Shown: piece by piece, positions 3,066 to 58,954 of the stretch
How positions within the stretch are numbered: position 1 is the stretch's first letter
Layout: every line of letters starts with the position of its first letter
NCBI GenBank assembly: GCA_003194425.1
Contig: PQXB01000001.1
Coordinates: 263,522 to 327,521, forward strand
Length of the DNA stretch: 64,000 nt
Direction: 5' to 3'
DNA from: Candidatus Methanophagaceae archaeon
Lineage (GTDB): Archaea; Halobacteriota; Syntropharchaeia; Alkanophagales; Methanospirareceae
Position numbers and translations under genes: made by a program
The notes under the pieces: model-generated
Databases searched by the model: none
What the model saw: only the letters and a program-made list of their open reading frames with translations
What the model was told of the DNA's origin: nothing

Positions 3066-3089
3066 AATTAGGAGGTGAAAACAAAAAAA
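3066..3089 (+). promoter_or_regulatory. Conserved leader / Shine-Dalgarno element ATTAGGAGGTGAAAAC upstream of ATG
   Basis: Near-identical motif also precedes starts at 17473, 19890, 50921(-) and, as GGGGGTGA, 62916(-); complementary to the CCUCC 3' end of 16S rRNA. Confidence 0.5.
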
Positions 3090-3710: not shown

Positions 3711-3799
3711 AGGAGAACAGAAAAAAAAGGACCATAAAAAATTTGGATAGAAGAGGAACAAAAACCTCTTCTATTTTTTTATTTTTTTTGAACGGAAAA

Positions 3800-4912: not shown

Positions 4913-4984
4913 GAGGTGAGTAAGTTATAAGAAACGAAATAAAAAGAATAAGAAGAATAAAGAATAGGAGAAGCACGAGAAAAA

Positions 4985-5422
4985 ATGGGGAAGAAGAAAA
5001 GAGCAAAAGTAAGAATAGGAATGCTAGTAGTAGCGGTAAGTGTAGTAGCGTTGTTTTCGGCATCGGCATTCGCACAGCCGCCGGGTCTGCCATTTGGAAA
5101 CGAGACGACAAACGAAACGGGATTGCCACCCATTCCAATTCCGCCGACACAGCCTCCTGAAAATGCGCCTCTTCCGTCGCCTTCGGTAACCGCAACACTG
5201 CCTGTCTCTGCACCTGCCACTCCAACTGCACCACCAACTGCACCACCAACTGCACCTCCAACTGCACCAACTACTCCTACCGTGACGGTAACAGCAGTAA
5301 CACCAAAACCGCAAGCCGAGACGCCAGGTTTTAGCGTTTCGGCGGTTGTTACAGCAGTGCTTGGTCTTGGGTTTGTGTTAGTGGGGCTTAAAAGGACGGG
5401 GCAAAGAAAGAAGAGCAAATAA
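4985..5422 (+). CDS. Small secreted Pro/Thr-rich protein with PGF-CTERM-like sorting signal
   Basis: Signal peptide, (PTAP)n linker, then PGF (5325..5333) + hydrophobic helix + KRTGQRKKSK tail. Confidence 0.6.
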   Translation: MGKKKRAKVRIGMLVVAVSVVALFSASAFAQPPGLPFGNETTNETGLPPIPIPPTQPPENAPLPSPSVTATLPVSAPATPTAPPTAPPTAPPTAPTTPTVTVTAVTPKPQAETPGFSVSAVVTAVLGLGFVLVGLKRTGQRKKSK

Positions 5423-7870: not shown

Positions 7871-7886
7871 AATAGGAGACAGAGAA

Positions 7887-13436: not shown

Positions 13437-14986
13437 AAAGGAGGATTAAAATTTGCGGTGCGACGCTGCTGTTGGTCTTGGTAGTTTCGGCGTTTGCAGT
13501 GCCAAGCGGAGTGGCCGGAGTGGCAGCCCTTGAGAGACCGACTTACGGCGTTGAACTGACCGTAGACGGCGGCAACAAGACTGCGAACCAGTCCGTGCGG
13601 CTTGGTGAGAACGCGACCTACAACCTGAGCCTTACGAACGCAGGAAATGCCACAGACCGCTACACGCTGAACTTTTCGAACCCGAACAACGCGACAACCT
13701 GCGGGCTGCTGCTCGGTGCGGCGAGTCTCAAAAAGAACCTAACGACAGCAGTCTTGGTGCCCGGAGAGAGAGCGAATTTAACGCTCGTCGTCGGAAACTC
13801 GACCGAAGGAGTGTTCAAAGTGAACGTAACCGCTACCTCTGTGAACGACCCTGCAAATGCAACCGTTAACACAACGACTACGGTTGGGACAGCACCAACG
13901 AGCCCTTCACTCGTCTCCTACACCATTTCCAACCGCACAATAACGCCACCCCAAACCACAGAAATAGATGTTAGATTCTCGGAGCAGGTGGAAGCGTGGA
14001 TAAAAATCGAAGATTCCGAGAGAAATTTGGTGAACGAGTTGTACCACAGCCCTGCCGTGACCAACCCAAAACCTAAAATCTGGGACGCAACCTTCACAAA
14101 CGGAACACTCGTTGGAGACGGCGACTATTTTGTAAATGTTACTGGGACCTGCGCATGCAGCAGCATAGAATGCACCGTAACGAACGACACCGAAATTATC
14201 ACCGTTACCCTCCCGCCAGACACCGACACCACGCCACCCGCGGTAACAGACCCAACTGCAACGCCCGAGACGATTCTTGCCGACGGAGTCCAAACCTCGC
14301 TCTTGAGTGTGACTGTCAAAGATGAGACCGCGGTTGACACTGTCGTAGTGAACCTCTCGCAAATCGGCGGGTCGCCAGCACAGGTCTTGGAACTCATCAA
14401 CAGCACGCTCTTTCTCTACGGCACGACGACAAACGCGTCGGTGGGAACGCCACCCGGAACCTACAACCTAACAGTCTCTGCAACTGACATTTACGGGAAC
14501 TCTAACGCGTCGGTGAGCTTTCGGCTGACCGTTACCGAACCAAGACTCGCTGTTTCAATTTCCACCGACAAAACAGACTACGCCCCTGGCGAGACAATGC
14601 AAATCCAACTGAACTTGTCAAATCCCACGCCCGCCGACCAAATGCTGCTGTTTGCGTGGTACTTTGCGATCCCTGACTACAGCTACCAGACCGCCGTCGT
14701 AGCACCTACGCTTGTTATTTTACCAGCGGGCTGCGACTTTTCCTTCCTCCTTCCAATGCCTGTGGGCGACTGGGGTGCGACAGATTTCAACGCTACTTGG
14801 TCTGTTGAACTGCTCAACCCGCTGACCTACAGCGTCGTAGACGACGACACTGCCGAGTGGCGTTACACGGCTGTGCGTGCGGCGGCAGGAGCGGAAATTG
14901 CAGGAGAAGAGGCGGCAGCAGCAGAGAAAATCGGTGCGGAAATAAAGAGAGAGCTAAACAAAGAGGGAGGGGTGCTACCTTTTTAA
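13433..14986 (+). CDS. Secreted protein with Ig-like (CARDB/NEW3-type) region and the shared C-terminal domain
   Basis: Signal peptide MKRRIKICGATLLLVLVVSAFA; C-terminal SISTDKTDYAPGETMQIQLNLSNPT...AEWRYTA then charged tail; start overlaps stop of the upstream gene (ATGA). Confidence 0.8.
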   Translation: MKRRIKICGATLLLVLVVSAFAVPSGVAGVAALERPTYGVELTVDGGNKTANQSVRLGENATYNLSLTNAGNATDRYTLNFSNPNNATTCGLLLGAASLKKNLTTAVLVPGERANLTLVVGNSTEGVFKVNVTATSVNDPANATVNTTTTVGTAPTSPSLVSYTISNRTITPPQTTEIDVRFSEQVEAWIKIEDSERNLVNELYHSPAVTNPKPKIWDATFTNGTLVGDGDYFVNVTGTCACSSIECTVTNDTEIITVTLPPDTDTTPPAVTDPTATPETILADGVQTSLLSVTVKDETAVDTVVVNLSQIGGSPAQVLELINSTLFLYGTTTNASVGTPPGTYNLTVSATDIYGNSNASVSFRLTVTEPRLAVSISTDKTDYAPGETMQIQLNLSNPTPADQMLLFAWYFAIPDYSYQTAVVAPTLVILPAGCDFSFLLPMPVGDWGATDFNATWSVELLNPLTYSVVDDDTAEWRYTAVRAAAGAEIAGEEAAAAEKIGAEIKRELNKEGGVLPF

Positions 14987-31739: not shown

Positions 31740-32504
31740 CTAAACCCTCCAGAGCAGCGGCATAAGCAAAAAGAGGACGACATTTGTCATGCCGTGTGAA
31801 ATGCTGACGCCGATGATCGAGCCTGTGAACTCCTTTATGTAGGCGTAGAAGCAGCCGATTAGGAAGACGAAGACCACATCGAGTGGCGACAAGTTTCCAA
31901 TGTGCATTACAGCGAAAAGGGTCGTGGTAAAAAGAATTCCTGTGTGCCGAGCGGGACTGAAATATTTAGTGGCGTTGTGTTGAATAATTCCCCTAAAAAG
32001 AAGTTCCTCGATGAACCCGGTGCAGACCATAAAAATCACAACCGGAGCAAAAAGCGACCTGAAGGAGAGCTCCTCTAACAGCGGACCGGGCTCCAAAATT
32101 AAATACTCAACAACTCCAAAAGGAACGCCTGTAAAACTTATTGCAAGTTGCGAGGGGATTTGCCGCAGTTTGAGCACGAGACCAACATCCTTTTCGTTTA
32201 AGTGCTGAGAGAAGATCAAAATTGCAGAAGCGAAAAAAAGCGGGATGCTCAGTAAAAAAAACCACTGCACAAAATGAAAAAGGTAAAGAGGGGCGTAAAG
32301 AGTAAGTATTCTGATTAGGGGAACGAGCGCGAGAGAAGTGAGGAGGTGCGAGCTATTTTTGTCTGTGGGGTACGAAAATGCTGCGTGTCCGAGGAGGGTA
32401 AAGAGAAGGAGACCGTGGCAAAAGAGCCCCCAATCTGATTTGAGTAGAGCTGTAATTCCCTCGGCAGCGGTGATGAGAAAGAGGTAAATAAATTCTTTTT
32501 TCAC
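31740..32504 (-). CDS. CPBP-family (CAAX protease-like) intramembrane metalloprotease
   Basis: Multi-TM protein with EELLFRG and FAVMHIGN motifs; start overlaps stop of the upstream gene. Confidence 0.7.
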   Translation of the reverse strand: MKKEFIYLFLITAAEGITALLKSDWGLFCHGLLLFTLLGHAAFSYPTDKNSSHLLTSLALVPLIRILTLYAPLYLFHFVQWFFLLSIPLFFASAILIFSQHLNEKDVGLVLKLRQIPSQLAISFTGVPFGVVEYLILEPGPLLEELSFRSLFAPVVIFMVCTGFIEELLFRGIIQHNATKYFSPARHTGILFTTTLFAVMHIGNLSPLDVVFVFLIGCFYAYIKEFTGSIIGVSISHGMTNVVLFLLMPLLWRV

Positions 32505-33373
32505 TCAACTTCTCCTTCCTTTCTCCTTCTCCTAACAAACGGAAAAATAATATAGCCAACTGGCGCCAAGACCAGAACCGCAATTACCGCGGAGCCCAGA
32601 ACTCCGTGCTCACTGACCAACATCTCGGCGACCATTTTCTCCTTCGGCTTCACCTCAAACATCTCGGGGAAAGAGTCCGCAGCGAGTTTTTTCACCGGCT
32701 CTAAAACCGCCTGGGGCGACCCGCTTAAACTTAAAGGTGCTAACGCGGAGACCCGAACCATTGTCACCTCCTTTGGCAGCGACATTCGCTCGTCCTTCAC
32801 AAAGTAGTACAACACAACCCTCCTTTCTGTTATTTCGCCGTCCTCGCCGCGTTTTACCACTACCAGCTTCTTTGCACTCAACTCGCCCCGAAACAGAAGC
32901 CCCTCCTTCTCCGACCGCCACGGTCCTTTAGCCCACGAGGCGTTGGCGACCGGAATCTTGACCTTCCCCTCTTCCTCTATTTCGTAGCCCAACGCGGGGT
33001 AGCAGACCACGGGCGGGTGGAACGAGGACAGGTTCGAGCCTTGAACGATGACGAAAAAGACAGGGCTTGAGTAGTTGGGCGACCGGTAAGCACGAGAGAG
33101 GACAAGGTCAGCACCCAGAGTCTGTTTCACTCCTGACCAGTCGTAGCTTGTGCTGTGCCACTCGCCGATTTTCTGCGGGAAATTTTTCATCTGCTCGGGG
33201 TCAGCGAAGTCGAGTTTTGTCTTGACAAAAATCCCCGTGCCCGAAGAGCTTTGAATCTGCGTGTCAATCAGAGAGAGACCGCTGGGCGAAATCATTCCGG
33301 GCGTTGAGAGCAGCGGAGTTAAGACGCAGACCAACGCGATTATTCCGACGGTCGTCCGAAACGTTTGTCTCAT
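32501..33373 (-). CDS. EpsI-like exosortase/archaeosortase-associated protein (tentative)
   Basis: N-terminal TM, central FHPPVVCYPALGYE motif resembling EpsI-family proteins, C-terminal TM with RRRRK. Confidence 0.45.
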   Translation of the reverse strand: MRQTFRTTVGIIALVCVLTPLLSTPGMISPSGLSLIDTQIQSSSGTGIFVKTKLDFADPEQMKNFPQKIGEWHSTSYDWSGVKQTLGADLVLSRAYRSPNYSSPVFFVIVQGSNLSSFHPPVVCYPALGYEIEEEGKVKIPVANASWAKGPWRSEKEGLLFRGELSAKKLVVVKRGEDGEITERRVVLYYFVKDERMSLPKEVTMVRVSALAPLSLSGSPQAVLEPVKKLAADSFPEMFEVKPKEKMVAEMLVSEHGVLGSAVIAVLVLAPVGYIIFPFVRRRRKEGEVE

Positions 33374-33415: not shown

Positions 33416-34252
33416 TTAAAGGGGTCTTAACTTTAACCTTAACTTCAACTTAAAAACCCCCGCAGCCGCGAGAATCAGCACCAACGCGACCAAAAAGAAA
33501 AGGACGCTTGAGCAGTCGTGAGCAAAGCCAACCGCAACCTCCACTCCGAACCAAGTGCCGATGAGGAGTGTTACGAAGAGCCGAAGTATGTTTGACGCCA
33601 GTGCAAACGGAACAACGAGGGCTAACAGCGAAATCCGAGCAAGCAGGCGTCCGCTTCCGAGCAAGTACGCAACGACCGCGGTGAGCGCGAAGAGCGGCAT
33701 AATTCGGTTTAAGCCACTGCACGCCGGTGCGATCCAGTAAGTGTTTCCTGCGAGTGTAACGCAGTTCCCGGAGGTTGAGGTGGGCGTTCCCAAGACCCCA
33801 AAAATCGCAGAGACCGCAGAGGCAGAGAGGTTCTGAAGCGGTACTTCTAAAGCTTCAAAAGCCTGGAACGGAATCGCGGTCGCGAGAAGGAAGACTGGAA
33901 AGAGAAGGGGCTTCGCCCTCTTTCCCAAGAAGACTAACGAAAATCCAGCCAAGACCGGCAAGAGCGAGAAGGCAAGCAGTGTCGGCAAGTGCAGGACAGT
34001 GCCGAGAAGGTAAAGAGAAAACCCGAAGCAGAGCAAGCAGAGCGGCAGGAAAAGCCAGTCTTCCGGCTCGGCACGATAAATTTCCTTCCGCTTGAGCCAA
34101 ACAAGAAACGCTCCCGCGGGCAGCAGCAGAAGACCGTGGCTGTAGTACGGGTCGTCGAGCCAAGCACGGAACAGCCAGCGCACGACTTCGTGGTAAAGAC
34201 CGGCTACGAGCAGTGCTGAGCAGAGCAGAACGAGGGTTTCAGTTCTCTTCAT
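33416..34252 (-). CDS. Archaeosortase/exosortase-family transpeptidase
   Basis: Polytopic membrane protein with conserved IAPACSG (Cys), NILRLF (Arg) and FAHD (His) motifs. Confidence 0.75.
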   Translation of the reverse strand: MKRTETLVLLCSALLVAGLYHEVVRWLFRAWLDDPYYSHGLLLLPAGAFLVWLKRKEIYRAEPEDWLFLPLCLLCFGFSLYLLGTVLHLPTLLAFSLLPVLAGFSLVFLGKRAKPLLFPVFLLATAIPFQAFEALEVPLQNLSASAVSAIFGVLGTPTSTSGNCVTLAGNTYWIAPACSGLNRIMPLFALTAVVAYLLGSGRLLARISLLALVVPFALASNILRLFVTLLIGTWFGVEVAVGFAHDCSSVLFFLVALVLILAAAGVFKLKLRLKLRPL

Positions 34253-37993: not shown

Positions 37994-38770
37994 TTAGAGA
38001 AGGAGAAGACACGCAAGCACCTTCTCCAAGTCCGCCCTGATTTTTGACGCTGCCTCAACGATTTTCTCGTAGTCTAACTCTTCGTCAGAATCAGAAATGC
38101 CGTGTGCGTAGTTGTCTACGGTACTCAAGTTCGCGTACTCAAGCCCCAGTTCCCTCGCAAGCGTCGCCTCCGACGCCATATTCATTCCAACGATGTCTGC
38201 GTAATTTTTTATAAAATTTATCTCTGCCCGCGTCTCGAGCCGCGGTCCGCTCGTCTGGAAATAAACACCACTCTCAACGAGCTCAATGTTTAAATTTAAA
38301 CCTCTTACCACTTTTATTAGTGCGACCCTCAAATCCTCCGACAACCCGGGCGTAATGTGAACAAGTTGGTCGTCGTAGAACGAGGGCGTGCCGCAGAGAT
38401 TTATGTAGTCGTGGGGAACGACAAACGACTGCGGTTTTATGCCGAGTTTTAAACTGCCGACTGAGGTAACGCCGATGATTTTGCGAACCCCGAGTTGCTT
38501 GAACGCTGCGATGTTAGCTCTGTAATTTATCTTGTGCGGCGGGATGTTCTTCGCTCTTCCGTGCCGCGGGAGGAAGTAGAAAGAGTCCTCAGCCTTGGCT
38601 TTAGAACTAAACAAGAGGTAAGCAGTGCCGTACTTCGTCTTAACCTCTCTCGGCTCTGCACTCGCACCCTCAACTGCACCCTCAACTGCACCCTCAACTG
38701 CACCTTCAACTGCACCCTCAAGCAGTTTCGTTCCGAACAGACTCGTCCCGCCGATGATTCCGAGCGACAT
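37994..38770 (-). CDS. mtnP: S-methyl-5'-thioadenosine phosphorylase / purine nucleoside phosphorylase
   Basis: MTAP-like N-terminus SLGIIGGTSL and overall family resemblance; (EGAV)5 insert. Confidence 0.75.
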   Translation of the reverse strand: MSLGIIGGTSLFGTKLLEGAVEGAVEGAVEGAVEGASAEPREVKTKYGTAYLLFSSKAKAEDSFYFLPRHGRAKNIPPHKINYRANIAAFKQLGVRKIIGVTSVGSLKLGIKPQSFVVPHDYINLCGTPSFYDDQLVHITPGLSEDLRVALIKVVRGLNLNIELVESGVYFQTSGPRLETRAEINFIKNYADIVGMNMASEATLARELGLEYANLSTVDNYAHGISDSDEELDYEKIVEAASKIRADLEKVLACLLLL

Positions 38771-40930: not shown

Positions 40931-41824
40931 ATGGCAGGAACAAAAAGAATAAGAGTAGGCGTAGTCGGCTGCGGTGCAATCGGGAGTGAAATCTGCAAGG
41001 CGATTGACGGCTCGAAATTGGAATCAGAGTTGGAGTTGCGGTTTCTGGTAGACAACCACCCTGAGAGAATCGAGAGGCTCTGTGAAAGTCTGAAGAGGAA
41101 GCCTGAAATAATAAAATACGACAGCACGGGGCTGGAGGAGATTTTAGAGGCGGTGGATTTGGTGGTCGAGTGTGCGTCGCAGGCTGCAGTTCGCGAGTTC
41201 GTGGTGCCGGCGTTGAGACAGGGTAAAGACGCAATGATTTTGAGCGTTGGTGCGCTGCTCTGCGAACCGGGTCTTTTTGAGGAGGTTGAAAGGCTGTCAG
41301 GGACAAAAGGGTGCAAGGTGTACATTCCCTCGGGTGCAGTGGCGGGAGTAGACGGGCTGAAATCGGCTGCGGGTCTTGGTGACACTGGTGGTGGTGGCGA
41401 CGGCGGGAGCGGGGTTCGGTCGGTGGAACTGACGACGAGGAAGCCGCCTCGGGGGTTTGAGGGGAACAAATATGTAAAGCAGCAGGGAATAAATTTGGCT
41501 TCGATAAAACAGGGGAAGCGGGCAGAGACGCTCTTCGAGGGCTCAGCGAGAGAAGCGGTTCGGCATTTTCCAGAGAATGTGAATGTGGCAGCGTCGCTGA
41601 GCCTTGCCGGTCTTGGTCCGGAGGCGACGCGGGTGCGGATTGTCGCGGACCCGTCTGCAGTGAGGAACGTGCACGAGGTTGAGGTGCTGGGAGAGTTTGG
41701 CAGGCTGTTTGTTCGGGTTGAGAATGTCCCGTCTCGAGCGAACCCGAAGACGAGTTTTTTGGCTGCTCTCTCCGCGATTGCAACACTGCGGGGCATTTTG
41801 TCTCCTCTGCGGGTCGGGACGTAG
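40931..41824 (+). CDS. nadX: L-aspartate dehydrogenase
   Basis: N-terminal RIRVGVVGCGAIG Rossmann motif and C-terminal ANPKTSFLAALSA; ATG 40931 preferred over ORF-track start 40901. Confidence 0.7.
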   Translation: MAGTKRIRVGVVGCGAIGSEICKAIDGSKLESELELRFLVDNHPERIERLCESLKRKPEIIKYDSTGLEEILEAVDLVVECASQAAVREFVVPALRQGKDAMILSVGALLCEPGLFEEVERLSGTKGCKVYIPSGAVAGVDGLKSAAGLGDTGGGGDGGSGVRSVELTTRKPPRGFEGNKYVKQQGINLASIKQGKRAETLFEGSAREAVRHFPENVNVAASLSLAGLGPEATRVRIVADPSAVRNVHEVEVLGEFGRLFVRVENVPSRANPKTSFLAALSAIATLRGILSPLRVGT

Positions 41825-41900
41825 AACAGGTAGTCGTAACCTTCTCCGCCTGTGTGCTTGTGTTAAATCTGAGCAAACTGGAGACGCAATAAAAAAAAAC

Positions 41901-41928
41901 GTGGGTGGGTTTTTTTCTCCCACCCGCC
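41901..41928. terminator. Hairpin with T-tract between convergent genes
   Basis: GTGGGTGGG-TTTTTTTCT-CCCACCCGC. Confidence 0.35.
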
Positions 41929-41971
41929 ACACACTGTTCTTTCTTTTGGTTCTGTTAGTGCTGTGTTTGAC

Positions 41972-42388
41972 TCACTTCCAGAATCCGCAGCCACTTCCGC
42001 CCCAGCGTCCGCCGCGGACGCCCCAGTTGTCGCAGACCCCGTCGCCGTCCTCGTCCACAAATCCCGGGCAGTCCTGCCAGGAGAGGTTGTAGTTGGCGAA
42101 CAACTGCTGTCTGAACTCCAGCGCTTCCTGTCTCTGCTTCTCTCTGAACTCCTGCAGCTCTTGAACCGCCTCTTCTCTCTGCTCCTCTGTTAACTGGTTC
42201 ATCAAACACCAGCACCCCGAAGGCTGAGAAGGCGAGGCGCCGGGACCACCGGGACCACCGGGACCGCCGGGACCACCGGGACCGCCGGGACCACCGGGAC
42301 CGCGGGCACTCACTACGCTGCCGACCGCTGTCGCTACCACTGCCAGAACAAATATTCCAGCAACCAATTTCGTCTTCTTTCTGTCCAT
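41972..42388 (-). CDS. Small secreted protein with (GPG)n repeat and Cys-rich C-terminus
   Basis: Signal peptide, GPGGPGGPGGPGGPG, acidic helix, Cys-containing tail. Confidence 0.45.
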   Translation of the reverse strand: MDRKKTKLVAGIFVLAVVATAVGSVVSARGPGGPGGPGGPGGPGGPGGPGASPSQPSGCWCLMNQLTEEQREEAVQELQEFREKQRQEALEFRQQLFANYNLSWQDCPGFVDEDGDGVCDNWGVRGGRWGGSGCGFWK

Positions 42389-42503
42389 TTTTCTGTGGGA
42401 GTAGGAAGGCTCTAATCCTCCTTAAGCCTTTCGTTTCGCCCGGATTAGACCTAAATTAGACCTAAATCACACCCAAATTTCTTCCAAATCTCACCCTCTC
42501 AAA

Positions 42504-42812
42504 TCATTCCCGACTTATGTAGAGCAGCACCAACAACGCCACAAACTCAAACAGATCCGGCAAGACCGCAAACAGCCCCAACGCGTACATCCGACGGTAA
42601 CCGCAGGCGTACGGCAGAAACGGGTTTGAGGTGACCGCGTGCATAATTAGGAGAACAATGAACGCAATCAGCCCCAACGCGAACTTCGATTTTATCTGCC
42701 CGTAGCTCCTCGCGTAAATGAAAAGCAAGCACAACAGCAGAACAAGGTTTCCAAGCGTCACCACAGCCTTGAGATTTACGAGCCACAAGTCCTGCACAAC
42801 CGCTGCCTGCAT
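42504..42812 (-). CDS. Hypothetical small membrane protein
   Basis: Three hydrophobic segments; immediately downstream of the ArsR-like regulator gene. Confidence 0.5.
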   Translation of the reverse strand: MQAAVVQDLWLVNLKAVVTLGNLVLLLCLLFIYARSYGQIKSKFALGLIAFIVLLIMHAVTSNPFLPYACGYRRMYALGLFAVLPDLFEFVALLVLLYISRE

Positions 42813-42814
42813 TT

Positions 42815-43195
42815 TTATCCCCTTTTCCCTTTCGCTCCTTCTTTTATTTCCCCTTCACTTTTTTCACTCTTAACTTTAAACTTATTCCAAATTCTCTCCA
42901 AAAACTCCGCAAAGACTTCGTACTCCGCTTCCGCGTAAGAAGACAAGAAATACACAGTGCCGTACCGCCTCTCCAACCTCTCCTGGCTGTCGCCTACGGA
43001 GTCAATTATTTTGTTCTCTTGCAGGATTTTGAGGTGGTGCCGCACGGTCTTGTAGTCCAGCCCCAGCAGCTCGGTCAGTTGGTTGGCGTTGTAGGGTCGC
43101 TCCTTCAGTGCTCGAATTATGCGAGCGCGGTTCGTTCCTCCTTTCGTGCCGACGAGCAGCCACCAAATCACTCGTTGCAGGGACATTCTCAACAA
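42815..43195 (-). CDS. ArsR-family winged-helix transcriptional regulator
   Basis: HTH region RARIIRALKERPYNANQLTELLGLDYKTVRHHLKIL. Confidence 0.7.
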   Translation of the reverse strand: MLRMSLQRVIWWLLVGTKGGTNRARIIRALKERPYNANQLTELLGLDYKTVRHHLKILQENKIIDSVGDSQERLERRYGTVYFLSSYAEAEYEVFAEFLERIWNKFKVKSEKSEGEIKEGAKGKRG

Positions 43196-43223
43196 TTTTA
43201 ATAAGAACCGCCAAAGTTATTTT

Positions 43224-44036
43224 ATGAAAGCCGTAGAATTCTCGCCAGTCTCGGAGAGTCAAATTACGAGGGCGATCGTCTCGGAGTTTGCGATCGAATT
43301 TGAGGAGTACGCGGAGAGTGAGGTAGTCGTAGTTGGCGGCGGTCCGTCGGGTTTAATGGCAGCGAAAGAGCTGGCGACCCGCGGCGTGAAGGTGCTGCTC
43401 GTCGAGCGGAACAACTACTTGGGCGGAGGATTCTGGCTCGGCGGGTTTCTGATGAACAAACTCACGGTCAGGTCGCCTGCAGAGAGCGTCCTCGACGAAC
43501 TCGGCGTGCCTTACAAGGAGTGGAGCGGGAAGCAGAGTAGAGGGAAGCAGAGGAGCGGGCTCTTCGTCGCGGACGCAGCGCACGCGTGCTCGAAGTTAAT
43601 TGCTGCGACTTGCGACGCGGGTGCGAAAATATTAAATATGACGGCTCTGGACGATGTAGTTCTGCACGGCGGGAAGGTGAGCGGAGTAGTGGTGAATTGG
43701 ACTGCGGTCTCGTCGTTGCCGCGGGAAATCGCTTGTGTTGATCCTGTTTCGCTTGAATCTCAGGTCGTGATTGACGCAACCGGGCACGACGCGGTGGTGG
43801 TCAGGAAATTGGAGGAGCGGGGGCTGGTAAAAACAGAAGGGCAGGGAGCGATGTGGGTCGAGCGGTCCGAGAATTTAGTGGTTGAGAAGACTTCGGAGTT
43901 CTTTCCGGGGCTCGTCGTTACCGGAATGGTGGTCTCCGCTGCTTACGGGCTTCCGAGAATGGGTCCTACTTTTGGCGCGATGCTCGTCTCGGGGCAGAAG
44001 GCGGCGGAGGTTGCGGCTGAGAAATTAAGGCTGTGA
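43224..44036 (+). CDS. thi4: Thiazole biosynthesis enzyme Thi4-family protein
   Basis: VVVVGGGPSGL FAD motif and family resemblance; ATG 43224 chosen to avoid overlap with the ArsR gene. Confidence 0.75.
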   Translation: MKAVEFSPVSESQITRAIVSEFAIEFEEYAESEVVVVGGGPSGLMAAKELATRGVKVLLVERNNYLGGGFWLGGFLMNKLTVRSPAESVLDELGVPYKEWSGKQSRGKQRSGLFVADAAHACSKLIAATCDAGAKILNMTALDDVVLHGGKVSGVVVNWTAVSSLPREIACVDPVSLESQVVIDATGHDAVVVRKLEERGLVKTEGQGAMWVERSENLVVEKTSEFFPGLVVTGMVVSAAYGLPRMGPTFGAMLVSGQKAAEVAAEKLRL

Positions 44037-44060
44037 AAGTTGTGAGAATATTGGGTCGCA

Positions 44061-45002
44061 ATGAACACCGCGATTTATCTGGTCAAAGCAGTAATTCTCA
44101 TCACCGCAGGCGTTACGATTGCGAACCTCGTGCTCGAAAGCAGTCTGATGAGGCGGCTGTCGGTTCTAATAACGCCGTTTTGCCGTGCTTCCAACCTGCC
44201 GAAAGAATGCGTCTTCTCGCTTGTTGCAGCGTTTTTTAACCCCACCGCGGGCAAGTCGGCACTCGCGGGTTTTTACCGAAACGGAAGGATTAGCGAGACG
44301 GAGACGACGCTAACGGCGGTGATGAGCACTTTTCCGATTGTCGTCGGCGAATCGCTGTTCAGGGTGCAGGCGCCAATCGCACTCGTACTTTTGGGTCCCT
44401 TCGTAGGCGGTATTTACATCTTCCTCAATCTCTTCTCCTCCTTTCTCCAGTCCTTCGCCGCCTTTCTCTACTCCAAATCCCACTTCCCTGCTCAACCCGA
44501 AGCCAAAAAAAAAGCCGAAATCGAAGCAGGAGCAGAAGCCGAAGTCGAACCCAAGAGCGAAAGAATGCGGAGGGCATTGAAAAAATCTTTTGGCTCGCTG
44601 AAAAAGGTAATTCCGATAACGGTGGTCGCTTTTTTAGTCGTAGACCTGCTCTTCAGGTCCGAAATCATAAACTACATCGGGCTTCTCTTCGACCCTGCTT
44701 TGAGAGTCCTGGGTCTGCCCGGCGAGAGCGTAACAGTGCTAATTGCGGATTTAGCACATTTCTCTGCGGGCTACGCCACTGTCGCTGCTCTGCTGGCTAA
44801 CGGGGTGGTGACCGCGAAACAAGCCGTCTTGACGCTGCTTGTTGGCAGTCTCTTAATCATAACGCTAATTTATTTAAAATTCAGCCTCTCAATGTATATT
44901 TCGCTGTTTGGACGACTCGGCGTCAAGATAAGCGTCGTAAATTACCTCTCCAGTCTGCTTTCGAAAGTCGTCGTGATTCTTTTGGTTCTAATATTGATGT
45001 GA
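44061..45002 (+). CDS. Hypothetical polytopic membrane protein
   Basis: Multiple TM segments; no family assigned. Confidence 0.5.
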   Translation: MNTAIYLVKAVILITAGVTIANLVLESSLMRRLSVLITPFCRASNLPKECVFSLVAAFFNPTAGKSALAGFYRNGRISETETTLTAVMSTFPIVVGESLFRVQAPIALVLLGPFVGGIYIFLNLFSSFLQSFAAFLYSKSHFPAQPEAKKKAEIEAGAEAEVEPKSERMRRALKKSFGSLKKVIPITVVAFLVVDLLFRSEIINYIGLLFDPALRVLGLPGESVTVLIADLAHFSAGYATVAALLANGVVTAKQAVLTLLVGSLLIITLIYLKFSLSMYISLFGRLGVKISVVNYLSSLLSKVVVILLVLILM

Positions 45003-45014
45003 TTTTAACGAATT

Positions 45015-45902
45015 ATGAGCGAGCGTCAGGAGCGTCGGGAGCGTCGGGAGCGTCGTCCAGTCGGAGAAGTGTGTGTGCTGAAAATCGGCGGTAGCGTGCT
45101 GACCGAGAAGGGCACGGCTGATAAGGGCACGGAGAAGAGAGCCCGCAAGAGCGAGATAAAACGAATCGCTGAGGAAATCGCACTTGCACTCTCTTGCCAC
45201 GAGCAGAGAGGAAAGGGTCTGGTTCTTGTGCACGGTGCGGGGTCGTACGGGCACCCGCAGGCGAAGCGGTATTTGGCGAGCCGCGACCCGAGAGACGCTT
45301 TAGTCACGCACGAGTCTGCGAAAGAACTGAACAGAATGGTTGTGGGTTCTTTGGTGCAGGCGGGGCTGAAAGCGGTCCCAATTCACCCTCTGAGCGGGGT
45401 CGTCTCGAAGAGGGGGGCAAAGGGGAGGGAACTAAAATATAAAATAAAAGAGCAGATAAAAATGGCGTTAAAAATGCGAATTATTCCCGTCCTGCACGGC
45501 GACATTATTTTTGACGAGGAGCAGGGGTTTCGGATTTTGAGCGGCGACCAGGTGGTAGTGTACGCAGCGAAAGAGGTGGCGAAGGAGTTCGGAGCGAGGG
45601 CGGTAAAGGTCGGCGTGGGCAGCGATGTCGACGGCGTTCTGAGTGGGGGAAGGGAAGGGGAAGGAGAAGTGGTGAGAGAGTTAACGCCTGCCGACGCGGA
45701 GAGGGAGAGGAAAAGAAAGAGCATAAAAGGGTCGGGGCATTTGGATGTGACTGGGGGGATGAGAGAGAAGGTTCGTCTGTTGGCAAAACTCGCGGACGAG
45801 AGTAAGATTCCGTCTCTGCTTTTCAATGCCGCGAGAGAAAGGAATGTTTATAAATTTCTGACCGACGACGAGACCCTGCTCGGCACGGAAATAATTAAAT
45901 AA
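45015..45902 (+). CDS. Isopentenyl phosphate kinase (amino-acid-kinase fold)
   Basis: VLKIGGSVLT and VHGAGSYGHPQA motifs; (ERR)n repeat at N-terminus. Confidence 0.7.
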   Translation: MSERQERRERRERRPVGEVCVLKIGGSVLTEKGTADKGTEKRARKSEIKRIAEEIALALSCHEQRGKGLVLVHGAGSYGHPQAKRYLASRDPRDALVTHESAKELNRMVVGSLVQAGLKAVPIHPLSGVVSKRGAKGRELKYKIKEQIKMALKMRIIPVLHGDIIFDEEQGFRILSGDQVVVYAAKEVAKEFGARAVKVGVGSDVDGVLSGGREGEGEVVRELTPADAERERKRKSIKGSGHLDVTGGMREKVRLLAKLADESKIPSLLFNAARERNVYKFLTDDETLLGTEIIK

Positions 45903-45923
45903 GAGTGACAAAAAAAGAATTCA

Positions 45924-46742
45924 ATGCGTAAATTCAAACTTAGATCTAGATTAAAGATTCCCGAAACACACCCCAGGTACGCGTCGTTAATGCGGCGGGA
46001 AAAACTCGTTGCAGGCGTAGAAGCAGGAATAACGAGCAGACAGGGCTTAATCGCACACGGACGGGGCGAGGCGTTTGACTACTTAATCGGCGAGCGGAGT
46101 TTGGACTCGGCGAGGAGAGCGACGGAGGCTGCGGCGTCGTTGTTGCTTGCTGCGAAGAAGCCGGTGGTTTCTGTTAACGGGAATGTTGCGGCGCTGGCGG
46201 CTGCGGAGGTTGTAGAGCTGGGCGGGTTGTTGAACGCACCGTTGGAGGTGAACCTCTTTTACAGGACCGAGGAGAGAGTGAGGCGAATAAAAACGCTGTT
46301 AGAGAGGGAAGGGGCTGAAAGAGTGCTTGGTCTCAGAGCAGACGCGAGAATACCTGAAATCGAGCACGAGCGTGCGAAGACCGACCGCGAGGGGATTTAC
46401 AGCGCGGACGTGGTTCTCGTCCCTCTGGAGGACGGAGACAGGTGCGAGGAACTTGTCAAGATGGGAAAGAAGGTCGTTGCGATCGACTTGAACCCTTTTT
46501 CGAGAACTTCCCAGCAGGCGACGGTGAGCATCGTGGACGACCTGGAACGGGCGTTGAAAAATCTCATAAATCTCATCTCCGCGGTTAAAGAGCAGAAGAG
46601 GAGCGGGGAGAGTGCTGCGGACCTGCTGGGTGCGGTGCTGCGAGGTTACGACAACAAAGCCAACCTGAGAGAAGCGGTTAAGGAAATCGTGAAGAGGCTG
46701 AAAGAAGATGCAGAAGGAGTACAAGCAGTGCCTGGTTCTTAG
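45924..46742 (+). CDS. 4-phosphopantoate--beta-alanine ligase (archaeal phosphopantothenate synthetase), tentative
   Basis: Resemblance to archaeal PPS family (HPRYASL..., GLIAHGRGEAFDYLIGE). Confidence 0.5.
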   Translation: MRKFKLRSRLKIPETHPRYASLMRREKLVAGVEAGITSRQGLIAHGRGEAFDYLIGERSLDSARRATEAAASLLLAAKKPVVSVNGNVAALAAAEVVELGGLLNAPLEVNLFYRTEERVRRIKTLLEREGAERVLGLRADARIPEIEHERAKTDREGIYSADVVLVPLEDGDRCEELVKMGKKVVAIDLNPFSRTSQQATVSIVDDLERALKNLINLISAVKEQKRSGESAADLLGAVLRGYDNKANLREAVKEIVKRLKEDAEGVQAVPGS

Positions 46743-47058
46743 AGCGGATTTAAGGCTGTCAAAGGGAAAGACGGCGGTGCAAGCCGCTCACGCCTCGGTT
46801 CTGTCTTACAACCTTGCTACGACTCGCGAGAGACGGAAGTGGAAGGAGCAGGGGCAGAAGAAGGTCGTGCTAAAGGTTAGCGGTCTTGAGGAGATTTACA
46901 GACTGCGGGACGAAGCCGTGCGGCTGGGGCTGCCGTCTGCTGTTGTAGAGGACGCGGGGCTGACCGAGGTCCCGCCGGGAACGGTGACTGCAGTTGGAAT
47001 CGGTCCTGCGAGTGCCGAGGAAATCGACAAGGTTACGAAGGATTTGGAGTTGCTGTGA
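46708..47058 (+). CDS. pth2: Peptidyl-tRNA hydrolase, archaeal type
   Basis: About 115 aa, CLVLRADLRLSKGK...AAHAS...GLTEVPPGTVTAVGIGP. Confidence 0.8.
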   Translation: MQKEYKQCLVLRADLRLSKGKTAVQAAHASVLSYNLATTRERRKWKEQGQKKVVLKVSGLEEIYRLRDEAVRLGLPSAVVEDAGLTEVPPGTVTAVGIGPASAEEIDKVTKDLELL

Positions 47059-47094
47059 AATTCATAAAAAATAAAAAAAGAGGGAGAAGAAAAT

Positions 47095-50000
47095 TCACTC
47101 CCTCTTCCTCATCGCTACTGCAAGCACAGCGCTCAAAACTCCGACCAAATAAAGCAGTCCTACAGCACTGAACTCCGGCACTGGCACTGGTGGCGGCGCT
47201 GCTGGTGGCGCACCCGGACCACCAGGGTCAACGATTTTTCCGTCTCCAACAGTCTTGTCCCCTCTCTTACCTTCAACAACTTTCCGTCGTACATAAATTT
47301 GTACCAGTGGTCCGTTGGGTTGCTTAGTGTGGGTCCGTATTTCCAGTATTCCGAGCCTGCAGGCAGGTCACCAGGCAGTTCGATCGTGACCTTCACTGTT
47401 TCTCCTACTGCAAGCCCGGCTATGTTGAATTTGAAGAACCCGTGCTTGAAGACGAGGTTCGGCTTTCCTGCTTTCTCTGTTGGCTCTGCAACCGCCACAA
47501 GATCCTCAAACCCTCCTGCGCTGGTCTTAAACTTTGCAGTTCCCGTGCCTGTGTTTGTGTCTACCGAAGCCTCTGTTGGTGGTAGTGGTTTTGTTGTTCC
47601 TCCAAAGCCAAGCAGTGTTCCTGTGTACTCGCTCTCTTGCAAATTCGCCCAGACGTAGTTCTCGGCGGTGTTAACGCCAGTGTTGCTGCACCTGTGCCAC
47701 GCTCCGTCTGTGTTGTTGTAGTAGTAAAATCCCATCGTGCTCTCGTCCTTTCCCGCTACCTCTGCGTCCGTGTAGTGCATCTCAACGTAAATCGGCCAGC
47801 TCACGTTCTCTTTGTCGCTGACTGCGACGTCAACGAATTTCTCAAGCATCTCTGCAGGCTTCTCTGCTTCCGGGTGCGGGTTCTCCTCGTAGTACGCCAC
47901 GGTCGCCGTAACTTCTCCTGTTGTCGTAATTTCTACGGTTGTGCCCGATTCTGACGGACCCTCTACTGTCTCGGTCTCTCCTGCTGGAATCGTCTCGTTC
48001 TCGGTTGAGGTCGTTTTTGTGATTGTGAAGACCGCGTCGCTCGTGTCCTCACCCGTGTTTCCTTCAACGTCCCGTGCCTCCACTTTTACGAGACTCTTGT
48101 TTGAGGTTGCAGCAGGGTTCGGCACTGTCCACGAATATTTTCCGTCGTTCGGCTCGTTCGTCGCGATTTCTGTCCAAGTGCCTGGGTTTCCGTTGTTCGT
48201 TGAGTACGAGATGTTTATCGGGTTCGCTGCCAAGTTGTGCGTTCCTTTCGCCACGCTCCATTTTATGTCGTAGACCGAGTCGCCGGGAATCTCCTCGCCT
48301 CCGTCTGGCTGCGTTACTGTCGGTGCTGGCGGCACTTCTGGAACTGTTCCAAGCGGAGCGAAGACGCAGAACTCGGTGATGTTTGCGTAAACGTAGTTTT
48401 CAGCCGTGTTCACGCCGTTTACTCCCGAGCCGTCCGCCAGCTCCCAGTCCGCGGTGGTTTCGTTGTACTTGTAAATTCTGAGTGTCGCTTCGTCAACGCC
48501 GCCCAAGTCGCCCTCCTCGTAACTCACGTTCAAGAAAATCCACGAGTCCCCGGTCACGTTCGTTGCGTTCACGAACTTACTGATGTTTGCCTTTCCTGCA
48601 GGGTCTGGCGGTGCAGTTCCCGTTTCCACGCCTTTCACCCCCACTCCGTTCTCGTAGTTGAACGAGACGGTTGTCGAGTAGCTGCGAAGGGCGAGGTTTT
48701 TTACGGTGTTGTTCTGCGAGCGGTTGCCTGAGTAGAAGCTGTAGTTGGTGTTGTTTGCGGCGGTGTTGTCAGTCAGCGTGTTGTTGGAATTCCCTACCTC
48801 TTCCCAGTCAGGGAACATGCAAATCAGTGCGAATCCTTTGTCGGTGTTGTTGCAGGCTCGGTTCTCCGAGAGCGTGTTGTAGTCGCAGGCGTCGTTGAGC
48901 AGAATTCCGACCTTGTTCGCTTCTGCGGTGTTGTTTGTTACGGCGTTGTGCGAGGCGTTGTGGTCAAGGAAAATCCCGACGCCCTCGCCCGTGTTTTCAC
49001 GCACGCAGTTGTCTTTTATCGTGTTGTGCGTGCAGTTCATTCCCAGGTAAATTCCGTTGTCGGCGTTGGAGCAGACGGTGTTGTTGTTTAGGTCGTTGTA
49101 GTGGCACTCGTCCCAGACTAAAAGTGCTGCCCACAAGCCAGTGTTTTGGCTAATGTTGTTGTAGCTGAGCGTGTTGTTGCTTGAAGAGAAGAGTTCGATT
49201 CCGTGCGCGTTGTTCTTGTTTGCGGTGTTGTTTGTGAGGTTGTTGTCGACCGAAGATTCAAGGTAAATTCCGCAGTTGGTGTTGTTCGAGGCGTTGTTGT
49301 TCGCGACGGTGCAGTTGTCCTCGAAGATTAAAGCGATTCCGTCGCCGAAGTTGTCGGTTGCGGTGTTGTCCGAGATTGTGTTGAAGCTCTCGCCACAACC
49401 CATAACTTGTATTCCTCCGTCCCAATTTTCTGTTGCGGTGTTTTCTGTAATTTTGTTGTTGCTCGAGTCAGACACTTGGACGCCCTGTTCTGAATTACCT
49501 TTTGCCTCGTTCCCGCTTACCTCGTTGTTGTCTGAGCCCAGCAAATTAACGCCAGAAGCCGGCTGCGGCATTATCGCAGACGTAACACCAGCCCAACTAC
49601 CAGCCCAACTACCAGCCCAAAGACCACCAACCCTTTCAACAACATCTCCGTTGTCGTTGCAAATATTGTCGGTGACGCTGTTCTCGAACGAGCCGAACAG
49701 ACTAATGCCAGACCCCCAGTTGCTCGAGGCGTTGTTGTTCGCGACGGTGCAGTTGTCCTCGTTTATCAAAGTTATTCCATCGCCGAAGTTGTTGGTTGCG
49801 TTGTTGTTGGAGATGTTGTTGTGGCTCGAAAGTAGCACCTCTTCAACCTCAACGCAAATTCCTGACCCTCCGCTGCCTGGATACATTCCTGTCTCTGACG
49901 CGGTGTTTTCTACGATCTCGTTGTGGCTCGAGGACTGCACATAAATTCCGTAACCGCACTCTATGGCGTTCCTCAGCACTGTGTTTCCTGTAACTTGGTT

Positions 50001-56306: not shown

Positions 56307-57563
56307 ATGAAAATGAAAGACAAAGGGAACATTCTGGATTTGGAGGCTGAAGTGATTTACAACGGGCTGTGCTGCTACTGCGGGACTTGCGGTGCGTTCT
56401 GCAAGGAGTACATTTCATTCGAGCAGGAGCGACCCGTGACGAGGAAGAAGTGTTACGAGATTCACGGTGCGTGCTACGATTTCTGCCCCCGGACTTTCTT
56501 CGCTCCTTTTGAGGTAGAGCGGGCGGTCTTCGGCGCCGTGCGGCGCGACAACCTGCTGGGCTACTACGCAACCGAAGAAGACATTTTTACGGCACGAGCG
56601 ACTGACGAAACGGTGAGAGCGCGGGGGCAGGACGGCGGCGTTGTCTCGGCGCTGCTCGGCTTCCTGCTTGAGCGCGGGGAGTTGGACGCGGCGGTCGTTT
56701 CGAAGAAGTCTGAAGAAGGAGAGGGAGAAGGAGAGGGAGAAGGAACTGGTGAAGGAACTGGTGAAGGAACTGGTGAAGGAACTGGTGAAGGAGCGGGGGT
56801 GTGGGAAGCCGAGCCGTTCGTTGCGACGACCAAAGAGGAGGTGCTGGCAGGAGCGGGCTCGAAGTACACGCAGTGCCCTTCGGTCTTGGGCGTTGGCGAC
56901 GCTCTCGAACGGGGGTACAAGAAGGTCGCACTCGTTGGGCTGCCGTGCCACATTCAAGGAATGCGGAAGGTTCAACTCTCGCGGGGGTTTGATGTCGGGG
57001 CGGAGCGGGTGAAGTTGTGCGTCGGGCTCTTCTGCACCGAGACTTTAGAAATGCCGCGGCTCAAGGCGAAGTTGGCGGAGTTGGGCACGAGAATAGAAGA
57101 GGTCGAAAAGTTCAACATAAAAAAAGGCAAATTCATCGTGCAGACGCAGGAGGGGAAAGAGTTAAAGACGCCGATAAAAAAGCTGCGGGACTGCGTGCGC
57201 GAGGCGTGCGACTACTGCTACGATTTTGCCGCGGAGTTCGCTGACCTCTCGGTCGGTTCAATCGGCTCCGAACTCGGCTGGTCTACTGTGATTGTGAGAA
57301 GCGAGCCGGGGCGGGAAGCGGTGAAGCAGGCGGAAGAAGCGGGCATTTTGGAAACCGCAAGGCTCTCCGAGGAGCAGTTAGAGGCAGTGCGGGGCTTGGC
57401 GTCGTTCAAGAAGCAGGGGAACTTGAAGAGCATTTACGAGAAGGCGGAGCGGGTTAGAATAATGAATCTTGAGGTGGAGCCGGAGAGGTTGGGGAAGTTT
57501 TTTGGTGTAGGTGGAGAGAAAAAAGAGAAGAAAGAAAAGAGGGGTGAAAGAAAATGGCGGTAG
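56307..57563 (+). CDS. Coenzyme F420 hydrogenase/dehydrogenase beta-subunit-family protein
   Basis: N-terminal Cys cluster [11 protein letters not shown] and FrhB-like body; (EG/TGEG)n insert. Confidence 0.65.
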
Positions 57564-58954
57564 ATGTTTCGGCACGAGAATACAGGACGATAAGAGAAGC
57601 AGCGGGTCCGTTAATCGTTGTAGGCGATGTAGAAGGCGTTTCGTACGGCGAGGTAGTGAAGATTGTGACGCCCGATGGGGAAGAGAAGACGGGGCAGGTC
57701 TTGGAAGCGAGCAAAGGGCTGGCGGTAGTTCAGGTCTTTGAGGGCACCAGCGGAATTGACACTGCGAGGACGAGGGTGCGGTTTACGGGCGAAACAATGC
57801 GAATTAGCGTCTCGCAGGAAATGGTTGGGCGGTTCTTTGACGGGCTGGGCAGGCCGATTGACGGCGGACCTGAGGTAATTCCAGAAGACCGGCTCTCAGT
57901 CATCGGCGCTGCAATAAACCCGACTGCACGCGACTACCCCCGCGAGTTCATTCAGACCGGCATCTCCACGATTGACGGAATGAACACGCTCGTTCGTGGT
58001 CAGAAGCTGCCGATATTTTCAGGGGCAGGAATGCCGCACAACGCCCTCGCTGCTCAAATCGCAAGGCAGGCGAAGGTGCTGACTACAAGCGAGCCGTTCT
58101 CGGTCGTCTTTGGCGCGATGGGAATAACGCACGAGGAGGCGTCGTTTTTTATGCGTGACTTCGAGCGGACGGGTGCGATCGAGCGGATTGTGGCGTTTGT
58201 CAACCTCGCGGACGACCCTGCGATTGAGCGTGTGATAACGCCGCGAATGGCACTGACGACCGCGGAGTTCCTTGCTTACGAGTACGATATGCACATTCTC
58301 GTTATTCTCACTGATATGACGAACTACTGTGAATCGTTACGGGAGATCTCGGCGGCACGAGAGGAGGTGCCGGGCAGGAGGGGCTACCCCGGCTATATGT
58401 ACACGGACTTGTCGATGAACTACGAGCGGGCGGGTCGGATAAAAGGACGCAAAGGCACGATTACGCAAATTCCAATTTTGAGTATGCCCGACGACGACAT
58501 CACGCACCCAATTCCTGACCTCACAGGCTACATCACTGAGGGGCAGTTCGTCCTCTCCCGCGACCTGCACAGGCGTGGGATTTTTCCCCCTGTTGATGTT
58601 TTGCCGTCGCTCTCGCGGTTGATGGACGAGGGAATCGGACCGGGCAGGACGCGGGAAGACCACGCCGGCGTCTCGAACCAACTTTATTCCGGCTACGCGG
58701 AGGGACGAGATATGCGGGACTTGGTCGCGGTCGTCGGAGAGGAGGCACTGACGAGCAGAGACCGGAGCTACTTGGAGTTCGCAGACGAGTTCGAGAAGCG
58801 GTTCGTTACGCAGGGCAGGAACGAAGAGAGGAGCATTGAGGAGACGCTGGGGCTTGGCTGGGATTTGCTGGCGACGCTGCCCGAGGGCGAGCTGAAGCGG
58901 ATTGACGAGGAGATAATAAAAAAGTACCACCCGAAATATAGGGTAGGGGTTTAA
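57554..58954 (+). CDS. atpB: A/V-type ATP synthase subunit B
   Basis: Strong similarity to the non-catalytic B subunit; start overlaps the frhB-like gene by 10 nt. Confidence 0.85.

Follow-up and report, generated by a model that had tools for sequence, protein, structure and literature searches.

Why does the gene for a large secreted surface protein stop in one reading frame when an apparently complete C-terminal sorting signal lies open in the adjacent one? This question is raised by a stretch of 64,000 nucleotides (nt), hereafter the window, from a Candidatus Methanophagaceae archaeon (assembly GCA_003194425.1, contig PQXB01000001.1, positions 263,522 to 327,521 of the forward strand), in which an open reading frame (ORF) of 1253 amino acids (aa) encoding a beta-helix protein ends close to the convergent gene pth2. 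The original prediction for this locus, made before any comparison with relatives, had offered three explanations: a single-base indel, placed with most likelihood between about 47220 and 47300, a sequencing error in that interval, or expression of the anchored form through a frameshift. The comparison with syntenic relatives points instead to a genuine biological deletion of 40 nt in an otherwise intact gene as the cause of the frame break, a reading to which we assign a probability of roughly 80%.

Layout of the 3′ end and the missing 40 nt

Translation reproduced both the coordinates and the sequence of the arrangement first described, namely a 1253-aa ORF that ends at 47160 and an adjacent frame open from 47367 to 47095 (Table 1). 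The ORF has the C-terminus ...HWYKFMYDGKLLKVREGTRLLETEKSLTLVVRVRHQQRRHQCQCRSSVL and is closed by a 39-aa out-of-frame tail (LLKVREG...RSSVL), while the frame offset by -1 (frame 2) translates as ...VVEGKRGDKTVGDGKIVDPGGPGAPPAAPPPVPVPEFSAVGLLYLVGVLSAVLAVAMRKRE; the two frames overlap by about 200 nt. Along the ORF, a signal peptide is followed by NosD-type parallel beta-helix repeats, middle domains and the first half of a choice-of-anchor U domain. Its N-terminus is signal-peptide-like, with a basic n-region, a hydrophobic core and the boundary ASA/LP, and the beta-helix region is matched by TIGR03804 (270.7 bits, 12 stretches), PF05048 NosD (223 bits) and PF13229 (217 bits). The choice-of-anchor U profile NF041766 matches residues 1153-1210 of the ORF as it stands, with 49.2 bits against a cut-off of 32. 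No single frame of the window holds the complete domain, frame 0 covering only positions 2-54 of the 92 in the profile. When frame 0 (...YDGK) is joined to frame 2 (VVEGKRGD...), the match grows to positions 2-91 and 60.5 bits, which means that the domain, and not the anchor alone, is split across the two frames.

A metagenome scan recovered two contigs that share pth2 and the upstream genes with the window, and both carry the region in a single frame. The first, Ga0190347_1001610 (L016), aligns with window positions 41376..47377 at 95.9% identity over 6068 nt with the same gene order, and reads through as ...HWYKFMYDGTTGAEINGNLVTLHFVEGERGDKTVGDGKIVDPGGPG...PVPEFSAVGLL...RIRKRE to its stop (C-terminal reading PGDLPAGSEYWKYGPTLSNPTDHWYKFMYDGTTGAEINGNLVTLHFVEGERGDKTVGDGKIVDPGGPGSPPPTPTPTPPPVPVPEFSAVGLLSLVGVLSAVLAVARIRKRE). 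A tblastn comparison shows its protein to be 100% identical to the window translation at 47375..47283, and it matches positions 53-91 of NF041766 in its intact fragment. The second, Ga0190359_1034678 (L015), is 97.4% identical to the window flank over 1.6 kilobases (kb) and is likewise single-frame, with a different central choice-of-anchor U patch. In the alignment of window and L016 DNA, the sequences are near-identical on both sides of a single gap of 40 columns: the window has TACGACGGAAAG followed directly by TTGTTGAAGG (deletion junction TACGACGGAAAGTTGTTGAAGG), and L016 has TACGACGGAACG, then ACAGGAGCGGAGATAAACGGCAATCTGGTAACCCTGCATT, then TTGTTGAAGG. The 40 nt kept in L016 encode most of TTGAEINGNLVTLHF. 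The same gap is seen against the more distant homologs L013 (protein P0005) and L014 (P0007). As 40 nt amount to 13 codons plus one base (3 x 13 + 1), the downstream codons are moved to the -1 frame, which is the frame that bears the tail.

The indel proposed in the original prediction is therefore upheld in part: it does separate the body from its anchor and does fall within the expected interval, but a change of a single base is ruled out by the 40-nt gap against L016. The comparison with orthologs that had been proposed as a check found both L016 and L015 contiguous, and under the terms set then (a two-frame arrangement shared by orthologs would have argued against a simple error) this favours a lesion over recoding. 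The residues lost (TTGAEINGNLVTLH) correspond to residues 174-187 of P0005, which the AlphaFold model of that protein places in two beta strands (176-180 and 183-189), with a block-mean predicted local distance difference test (pLDDT) of about 89; block means for the domain are 82-94. The window copy resembles other choice-of-anchor U domains in scoring above the cut-off and in directly preceding a C-terminal anchor, with P0005 and P0007 showing the same layout of domain, linker and VPEF-type tail, but it differs from them in being split over two frames and in lacking about 13 residues, that is, two predicted beta strands.

That frame 2 is no chance open frame is argued by three observations: its tail has 91% protein identity (tblastn) with the tail that the syntenic contigs L016 and L015 carry in frame, it extends the NF041766 match on fusion, and a six-frame scan for P[EG]F followed by a hydrophobic stretch and a basic tail found it to be the sole VPEF-type tail of the window, beside one PGF-like tail at 4985..5422. 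In addition, the T-rich spacer that lies between the tail and pth2 is shared with L015, L016 and the related contig L008, which puts the original 3′ terminus of this gene at 47095 and not at 47160.

Mutation, artefact or recoding

The 40 nt might have been lost by the assembly and not by the organism. In that case the organism would carry an intact in-frame gene, and the segment would have dropped out when a metagenome of mixed strains was assembled or polished. The setting lends itself to this, as the locus is strain-variable, with three different alleles within about 96-97% identity, a situation prone to assembler mistakes, and several public contigs break in or near the gene: L015 and L016 start inside it, the Logan contig L028 ends at 47039, and the 99%-identical exosortase contig behind L029 has its estimated end near window position 46.0 kb, short of the deletion. 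On the other hand, the deleted segment contains no homopolymer, and no repeat of more than 4 nt linking it to its flanks was found by eye (the longest being ACGG and GGAG), so that neither homopolymer miscalling nor repeat or graph collapse would yield the gap. Nine other gaps separate window and L016 in coding DNA over 6 kb, and all of them (9, 3, 3, 9, 15, 9, 12, 45 and 9 nt) are multiples of three, the sole exception, at 41899, being a change of 2 nt within a T-run between genes; this frame-keeping pattern indicates that the sequence is not scattered with frame-breaking indel errors. Furthermore, L028, which belongs to an independent assembly (SRR6664617) and was found via the neighbouring 272-aa gene, is 100% identical to window positions 45859..47039 (1181 nt), and the strain is thus real and the flanking sequence accurate. 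The sequencing error considered at the outset is accordingly unlikely, and the same can be said of a loss in assembly.

With regard to how the segment was lost, slipped-strand deletion between direct repeats was rejected, given that no flanking repeat longer than 4 nt was found by eye, and a paralogous donor within the window was rejected as well, since choice-of-anchor U domain and VPEF tail each occur only once in the 64 kb.

Several points nevertheless weigh against a genuine, inactivating deletion. The base beside the junction differs too (GGAAAG in the window, GGAACG in L016), which leaves the exact end-points uncertain by 1-2 nt. The intact comparator L016 is a different strain, at about 96% identity, and no direct ancestor. 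No second assembly of the strain was found across the junction, L028 ending 56 nt short of the tail; the deletion is known from the assembled consensus alone, so that an artefact of assembly or consensus calling keeps a small share of the probability. Finally, the truncated predicted protein may retain some function. Wider searches added no closer relative: a scan of contigs of GTDB-representative genomes gave distant relatives only (33-39% identity), the source species being absent from that set, and a word-indexed protein search with the repaired C-terminus gave no close ortholog, its best match having 68% identity over 40% of the query; P0005 and P0007 came from this search. Look-ups of the 1253-aa ORF, the window Pth2 and a 30-aa ORF starting with GTG found no exact product on record, and literature searches on ANME-1 surface-protein frameshifts and on run SRR6664617 returned nothing relevant.

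A second possibility is that the two frames are joined during expression, with programmed -1 ribosomal frameshifting or transcriptional slippage yielding a fraction of anchored protein. Programmed -1 frameshifting has an archaeal example in the alpha-fucosidase gene fucA1 of Sulfolobus solfataricus, with the slippery sequence A-AAA-AAT, and the window likewise has an archaeal gene in which two frames overlap at an offset of -1. The overlap of about 200 nt, a tail frame in the -1 register, a run of five A (G GAA AAA, 47241..47235) inside the overlap and a tail that is still intact would all suit such a mechanism. However, no slippery heptamer of the form X XXY YYZ occurs in the zero frame from 47367 to 47160, where the only candidates are sites at which re-pairing is open to the A-site codon alone, such as G GAA AAA, and the five-base run is the only A-run. 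The RNA 3′ of it (47234..47130, 105 nt) folds, as pseudoknot-free secondary structure, no better than shuffled sequence (-35.6 kcal/mol, mean of the shuffles -36.5, z = 0.27), 115 of 200 shuffles folding at least as well as the native sequence. Moreover, the two-frame layout is not conserved, since a single frame is found in the syntenic, conspecific contigs L016 and L015 as well as in the homologs P0005 and P0007. A shifted product, with a junction peptide such as ...LLETEKIVDPGGPGAPPAAPPPVPVPEF, would still lack two beta strands of choice-of-anchor U, and a shift at the A-run would add 15 aberrant residues. Unlike fucA1, the window has no slippery heptamer and no conserved layout, and its frames are joined by a domain-destroying deletion; the frameshift-dependent anchored form that had been proposed has hardly any probability left. 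A scan for sigma-70 promoters and intrinsic terminators was uninformative for an archaeon.

Returning to the deletion, its age can be approached from the sequence around it. The 3.6 kb upstream of the junction are still open and the remainder of the 1253-aa ORF is intact. On the 3′ side, window and L016 differ by in-frame indels in linker and tail and by several substitutions that leave the frame-2 protein unchanged (GGT/GGC, CCG/CCA, AAG/AAA), which argues that frame 2 was under selection until recently. Both observations are consistent with a recent lesion. In the proposed sequence of events, the ancestral gene would have encoded a secreted beta-helix surface protein followed by choice-of-anchor U, a Pro/Ala linker and a VPEF-type signal, with its stop at 47095. 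The deletion would then have taken 13 codons and one base out of choice-of-anchor U, after which translation would run for 39 codons in the wrong frame and stop at 47160, so that linker and signal would stay in the -1 frame without being translated. At most, the strain would make a product secreted via its signal peptide with a broken last domain and no sorting signal, and hence would undergo no sortase recognition, cleavage or anchoring. The allele is probably an anchor-less, non-functional pseudogene.

It is conceivable that such an allele is maintained in part of the population, with the beta-helix protein being shed and not anchored. The locus is a diversifying one, given the mosaic choice-of-anchor U patch of L015 and the NHL-propeller protein found at the same position in L008 (see below), and the remainder of the ORF is intact. 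Nevertheless, an intact upstream ORF is equally expected of any young pseudogene, the deletion wrecks a folded domain instead of removing the tail cleanly, a 39-aa nonsense extension is left behind, and one sequence only is known, all of which makes selection for the anchor-less form highly improbable. The inactivating deletion resembles the frameshifted pseudogenes and strain-specific loss alleles known for surface proteins, in which one out-of-frame deletion hits an otherwise intact gene at a variable locus and sister strains keep the intact allele. It differs from phase-variable simple-sequence tracts in that a unique 40-nt segment is affected, which is not readily reversible. The event is an ordinary one, a probably genuine frameshifting deletion specific to this strain, at a surface-protein locus that varies between strains, with nothing unusual about it as a phenomenon.

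Table 1. Coordinates of the gene, its split 3′ end and the associated genes in the window
Feature	Position	Strand	Basis or remark
Frame-0 ORF, 1253 aa	47160..50921	-	Stop TAG at 47162..47160; translation and profile matches
Tail frame, offset -1 (frame 2)	47367 to TGA 47097..47095	-	Three-frame translation of 47480..47050
Choice-of-anchor U, N-terminal part, frame 0	47280..47465	-	ORF residues 1153-1214, ending ...HWYKFMYDGK
40-nt deletion junction	47279/47280	-	Alignment of window and L016 DNA
Choice-of-anchor U, C-terminal part, frame 2	47212..47280	-	VVEGKRGDKTVGDGKIVDPGGPG, aligning to VEGERGDKTVGDGKIVDPGGPG of L016
Pro/Ala-rich linker, frame 2	47179..47211	-	APPAAPPPVPV; strain length variation of 9 + 3 nt
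Tripartite C-terminal sorting signal (predicted), frame 2	47095..47178	-	PEF 47178..47170; 20-residue hydrophobic helix SAVGLLYLVGVLSAVLAVAM; RKRE; TGA 47097..47095
T-rich intergenic spacer	47059..47094	.	Between original gene end and convergent pth2; identical in L015 and L016, conserved in L008
pth2 (peptidyl-tRNA hydrolase), convergent neighbour	46708..47058	+	Synteny anchor for orthologous loci
EpsH-type exosortase	33416..34252	-	TIGR02602, 142.5 bits (cut-off 105.55)
EpsI-like protein	32501..33373	-	TIGR02914, 27.4 bits (cut-off 42.8; sub-threshold)
CPBP/Rce1-type intramembrane protease	31740..32504	-	Sub-threshold CPBP/myxosortase-type matches

The VPEF-type tail and its candidate sortase

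The frame-2 tail, by direct reading, consists of PVPEF, the hydrophobic stretch and RKRE before the stop, and has at motif level the three parts that define a PEF-CTERM signal. The same succession of PVPEF, helix and basic tail is found in frame in L015, L016, L008, P0001, P0004, P0005 and P0007, and in the AlphaFold model of P0005 the corresponding residues, 225-248, are predicted to be helical. The window has its signal out of frame with the signal-peptide-bearing ORF, and L015 and L016 have theirs in frame. In contig coordinates, the tails lie at L008:1050-1150, L015:560-659 and L016:240-338.

Curated models give a different picture. No PEF-CTERM or PEP-CTERM model of NCBIfam matched the isolated tail, L016, P0001, P0004, P0005, P0007 or L008 in hmmscan at E <= 10, and none of NCBIfam or Pfam matched the window constructs, fused C-terminus included, at E <= 1; the Pfam run covered the window constructs only. 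The PEP-CTERM models TIGR02595/PF07589 had no match in Pfam (E <= 1) or in NCBIfam. For TIGR03024 the NCBIfam scans gave no row, a negative that carries less weight as HMMER filters drop most matches above E of about 0.1 and the presence of this model in the library is unconfirmed, the same library having reported other TIGRFAMs (TIGR03762, TIGR02602). The tail matched nothing but the signal part of midcut_by_XrtH, and this weakly (16.8 bits, cut-off 45). As for the enzyme, the only sortase-family gene in the window is of the bacterial EpsH type and scores 21.2 bits against the ArtC model TIGR03762 (cut-off 100). The description of the tail as a typical PEF-CTERM signal therefore stands at motif level only, given that no curated model matches and the sole sortase of the window is EpsH-type and not ArtC.

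The exosortase is conserved in Methanophagales, with homologs of 63-73% identity, and the order of the three genes (exosortase, EpsI-like protein, CPBP-type protease) recurs in L029, where Pfam recognises Exosortase_EpsH, EpsI and Rce1-like domains. It has been reported that ANME-1 lack the InterPro domains for PEF-CTERM, ArtA and ArtC but possess EpsH-related ones (Timmers et al. 2017; PMC5244752), and an EpsH-type sortase together with a tail without a curated PEF-CTERM match agrees with that report. Judged by its sequence, the tail is a putative VPEF-type signal of the exosortase/archaeosortase class, and the EpsH-type exosortase about 13 kb away is likely its processing enzyme, a pairing suggested solely by their co-occurrence in one 64-kb window.

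Two known systems can be compared. The tail resembles the signals of the PEF-CTERM/archaeosortase C system (TIGR03024/TIGR03762; Haft et al. 2012, as cited in PMC5244752) in its position at the extreme C-terminus, its Pro-Glu-Phe motif, its helix of about 20 residues and its basic cluster, all placed on a secreted surface protein behind a linker rich in Pro, but it differs in that neither it nor the homologous tails match the model, that the sortase reaches only 21 bits against ArtC, and that the signal is out of frame here. With the bacterial PEP-CTERM/exosortase system (EpsH/XrtA) the window shares an EpsH above the cut-off, accompanied by an EpsI-like protein and a CPBP-type protease, and a tail composed of V-P-E-x, a helix and Arg/Lys residues; the differences lie in the third residue of the motif, which is Phe and not Pro, in the archaeal host, in the missing match to PEP-CTERM models and in the indirect nature of the pairing.

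The region preceding the anchor also shows similarities of its own. The domain before choice-of-anchor U (ORF residues ~1000-1130, TSTENETIPAGETETVEGP...NTAENYVWANL) weakly resembles the PGF-pre-PGF domain of P0004, where TIGR04213 matches residues 193-312 at E = 0.007, below its cut-off. P0001, P0003 and P0004 have no choice-of-anchor U domain at this point, and there the PGF-pre-PGF-like domain runs straight into a tail of the VPEF type (PVF in P0003).

The pth2-adjacent locus and its wider meaning

The convergent neighbour pth2 has its closest named homologs in Methanophagales/ANME-1, a group of methane-oxidising archaea to which the window is thereby assigned, and the other neighbours are, judging from their sequence, putative archaeal housekeeping genes such as those for exosome subunits. 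The surface-protein gene itself varies between relatives. L015 follows the window sequence as far as ...FKHGFFKFNI, departs from it with a different choice-of-anchor U variant (L015:390-505 against window 47246..47336), and rejoins it at GACGGAAAAATCGTTGACCC. In L008, from a related species (Pth2 93% identical, flanking DNA 87%), the gene convergent to pth2 encodes an unrelated 727-aa NHL-propeller protein, yet homology to the window extends over its last ~90 nt (PVPEFSVVGLLGLVGVLS...RKRE) and over the T-rich spacer (propeller region L008:1050-3233 against window 47095..47200). P0005 in turn matches the C-terminal region of the L008 propeller protein, with the same MEPVQTAPGEYKWAF... segment, but differs in an inserted choice-of-anchor U domain that precedes the tail. 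In L009-L012, whose Pth2 is 77% identical, no surface gene is found at that position. Taken together, these comparisons suggest that surface-protein bodies and pre-anchor domains may be exchanged upstream of a conserved tail, through recombination or cassette-like exchange. The 40-nt deletion is one more variant, a destructive one, at this pth2-adjacent locus.

Other features of the window deserve a brief mention. The far end of contig L008 (L008:3657-3785) is 93% identical to window 57533..57663, inverted and 10 kb away, which indicates a putative rearrangement or inversion between the two species beside the surface-protein gene. L016 and the window also differ in repeat number, always in frame, at 43531 (ORF 43119..44036), 42301 (ORF 41972..42388), 44532, 45029, 45117 and 46567: at 43531 L016 has three extra copies of the 15-nt unit CCTCTACTCTGCTTC, at 42301, within a (GPG)n protein, it has one extra GGTCCCGGT unit, and several of the other differences are duplications of 9-15 nt. 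A small protein at 4985..5422 (+) carries a PGF-like tail (ETPGFSVSAVVTAVLGLGFVLVGLKRTGQRKKSK) with a long (PTA)n-type linker and has no curated model match; it lies within a cluster at 3075..14986 (+), among large signal-peptide proteins of 389, 815, 1849 and 517 aa, that looks like a surface-protein island. Finally, the ORF at 37994..38770 (-) has AVEG repeated in tandem (GAVEGAVEGAVEGAVEG) close to the N-terminus.

Annotation should mark the gene as an allele disrupted by a frameshift, with its ancestral end at 47095 and not at 47160, and the gene should not be counted as an intact 1253-aa protein, as a recoding site or as a single-base error. The biological weight of the deletion is small, amounting to the loss of the anchor of one surface protein in one strain of an ANME-1 species. 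What is mildly novel is the occurrence of VPEF tails together with an EpsH exosortase in ANME-1, and the mosaic surface-protein locus. The two can be combined, tentatively and with more doubt than confidence, into a picture in which ANME-1 would have a VPEF signal of their own, processed by an EpsH exosortase rather than an archaeosortase, and a cassette-like surface-protein hotspot next to pth2. If this were true, the signal would escape the curated PEF-CTERM and PEP-CTERM models, which would explain its reported absence in ANME-1 (PMC5244752); beta-helix and NHL-propeller bodies and choice-of-anchor U variants would swap upstream of the tail, and anchor-less alleles would form part of population-level surface variation. 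In any case, VPEF tails that standard models do not report, found with an EpsH-type exosortase, bear on the earlier claims that ANME-1 lack such sorting (PMC5244752), and the surface-protein genes adjacent to pth2 differ among close ANME-1 strains and species.

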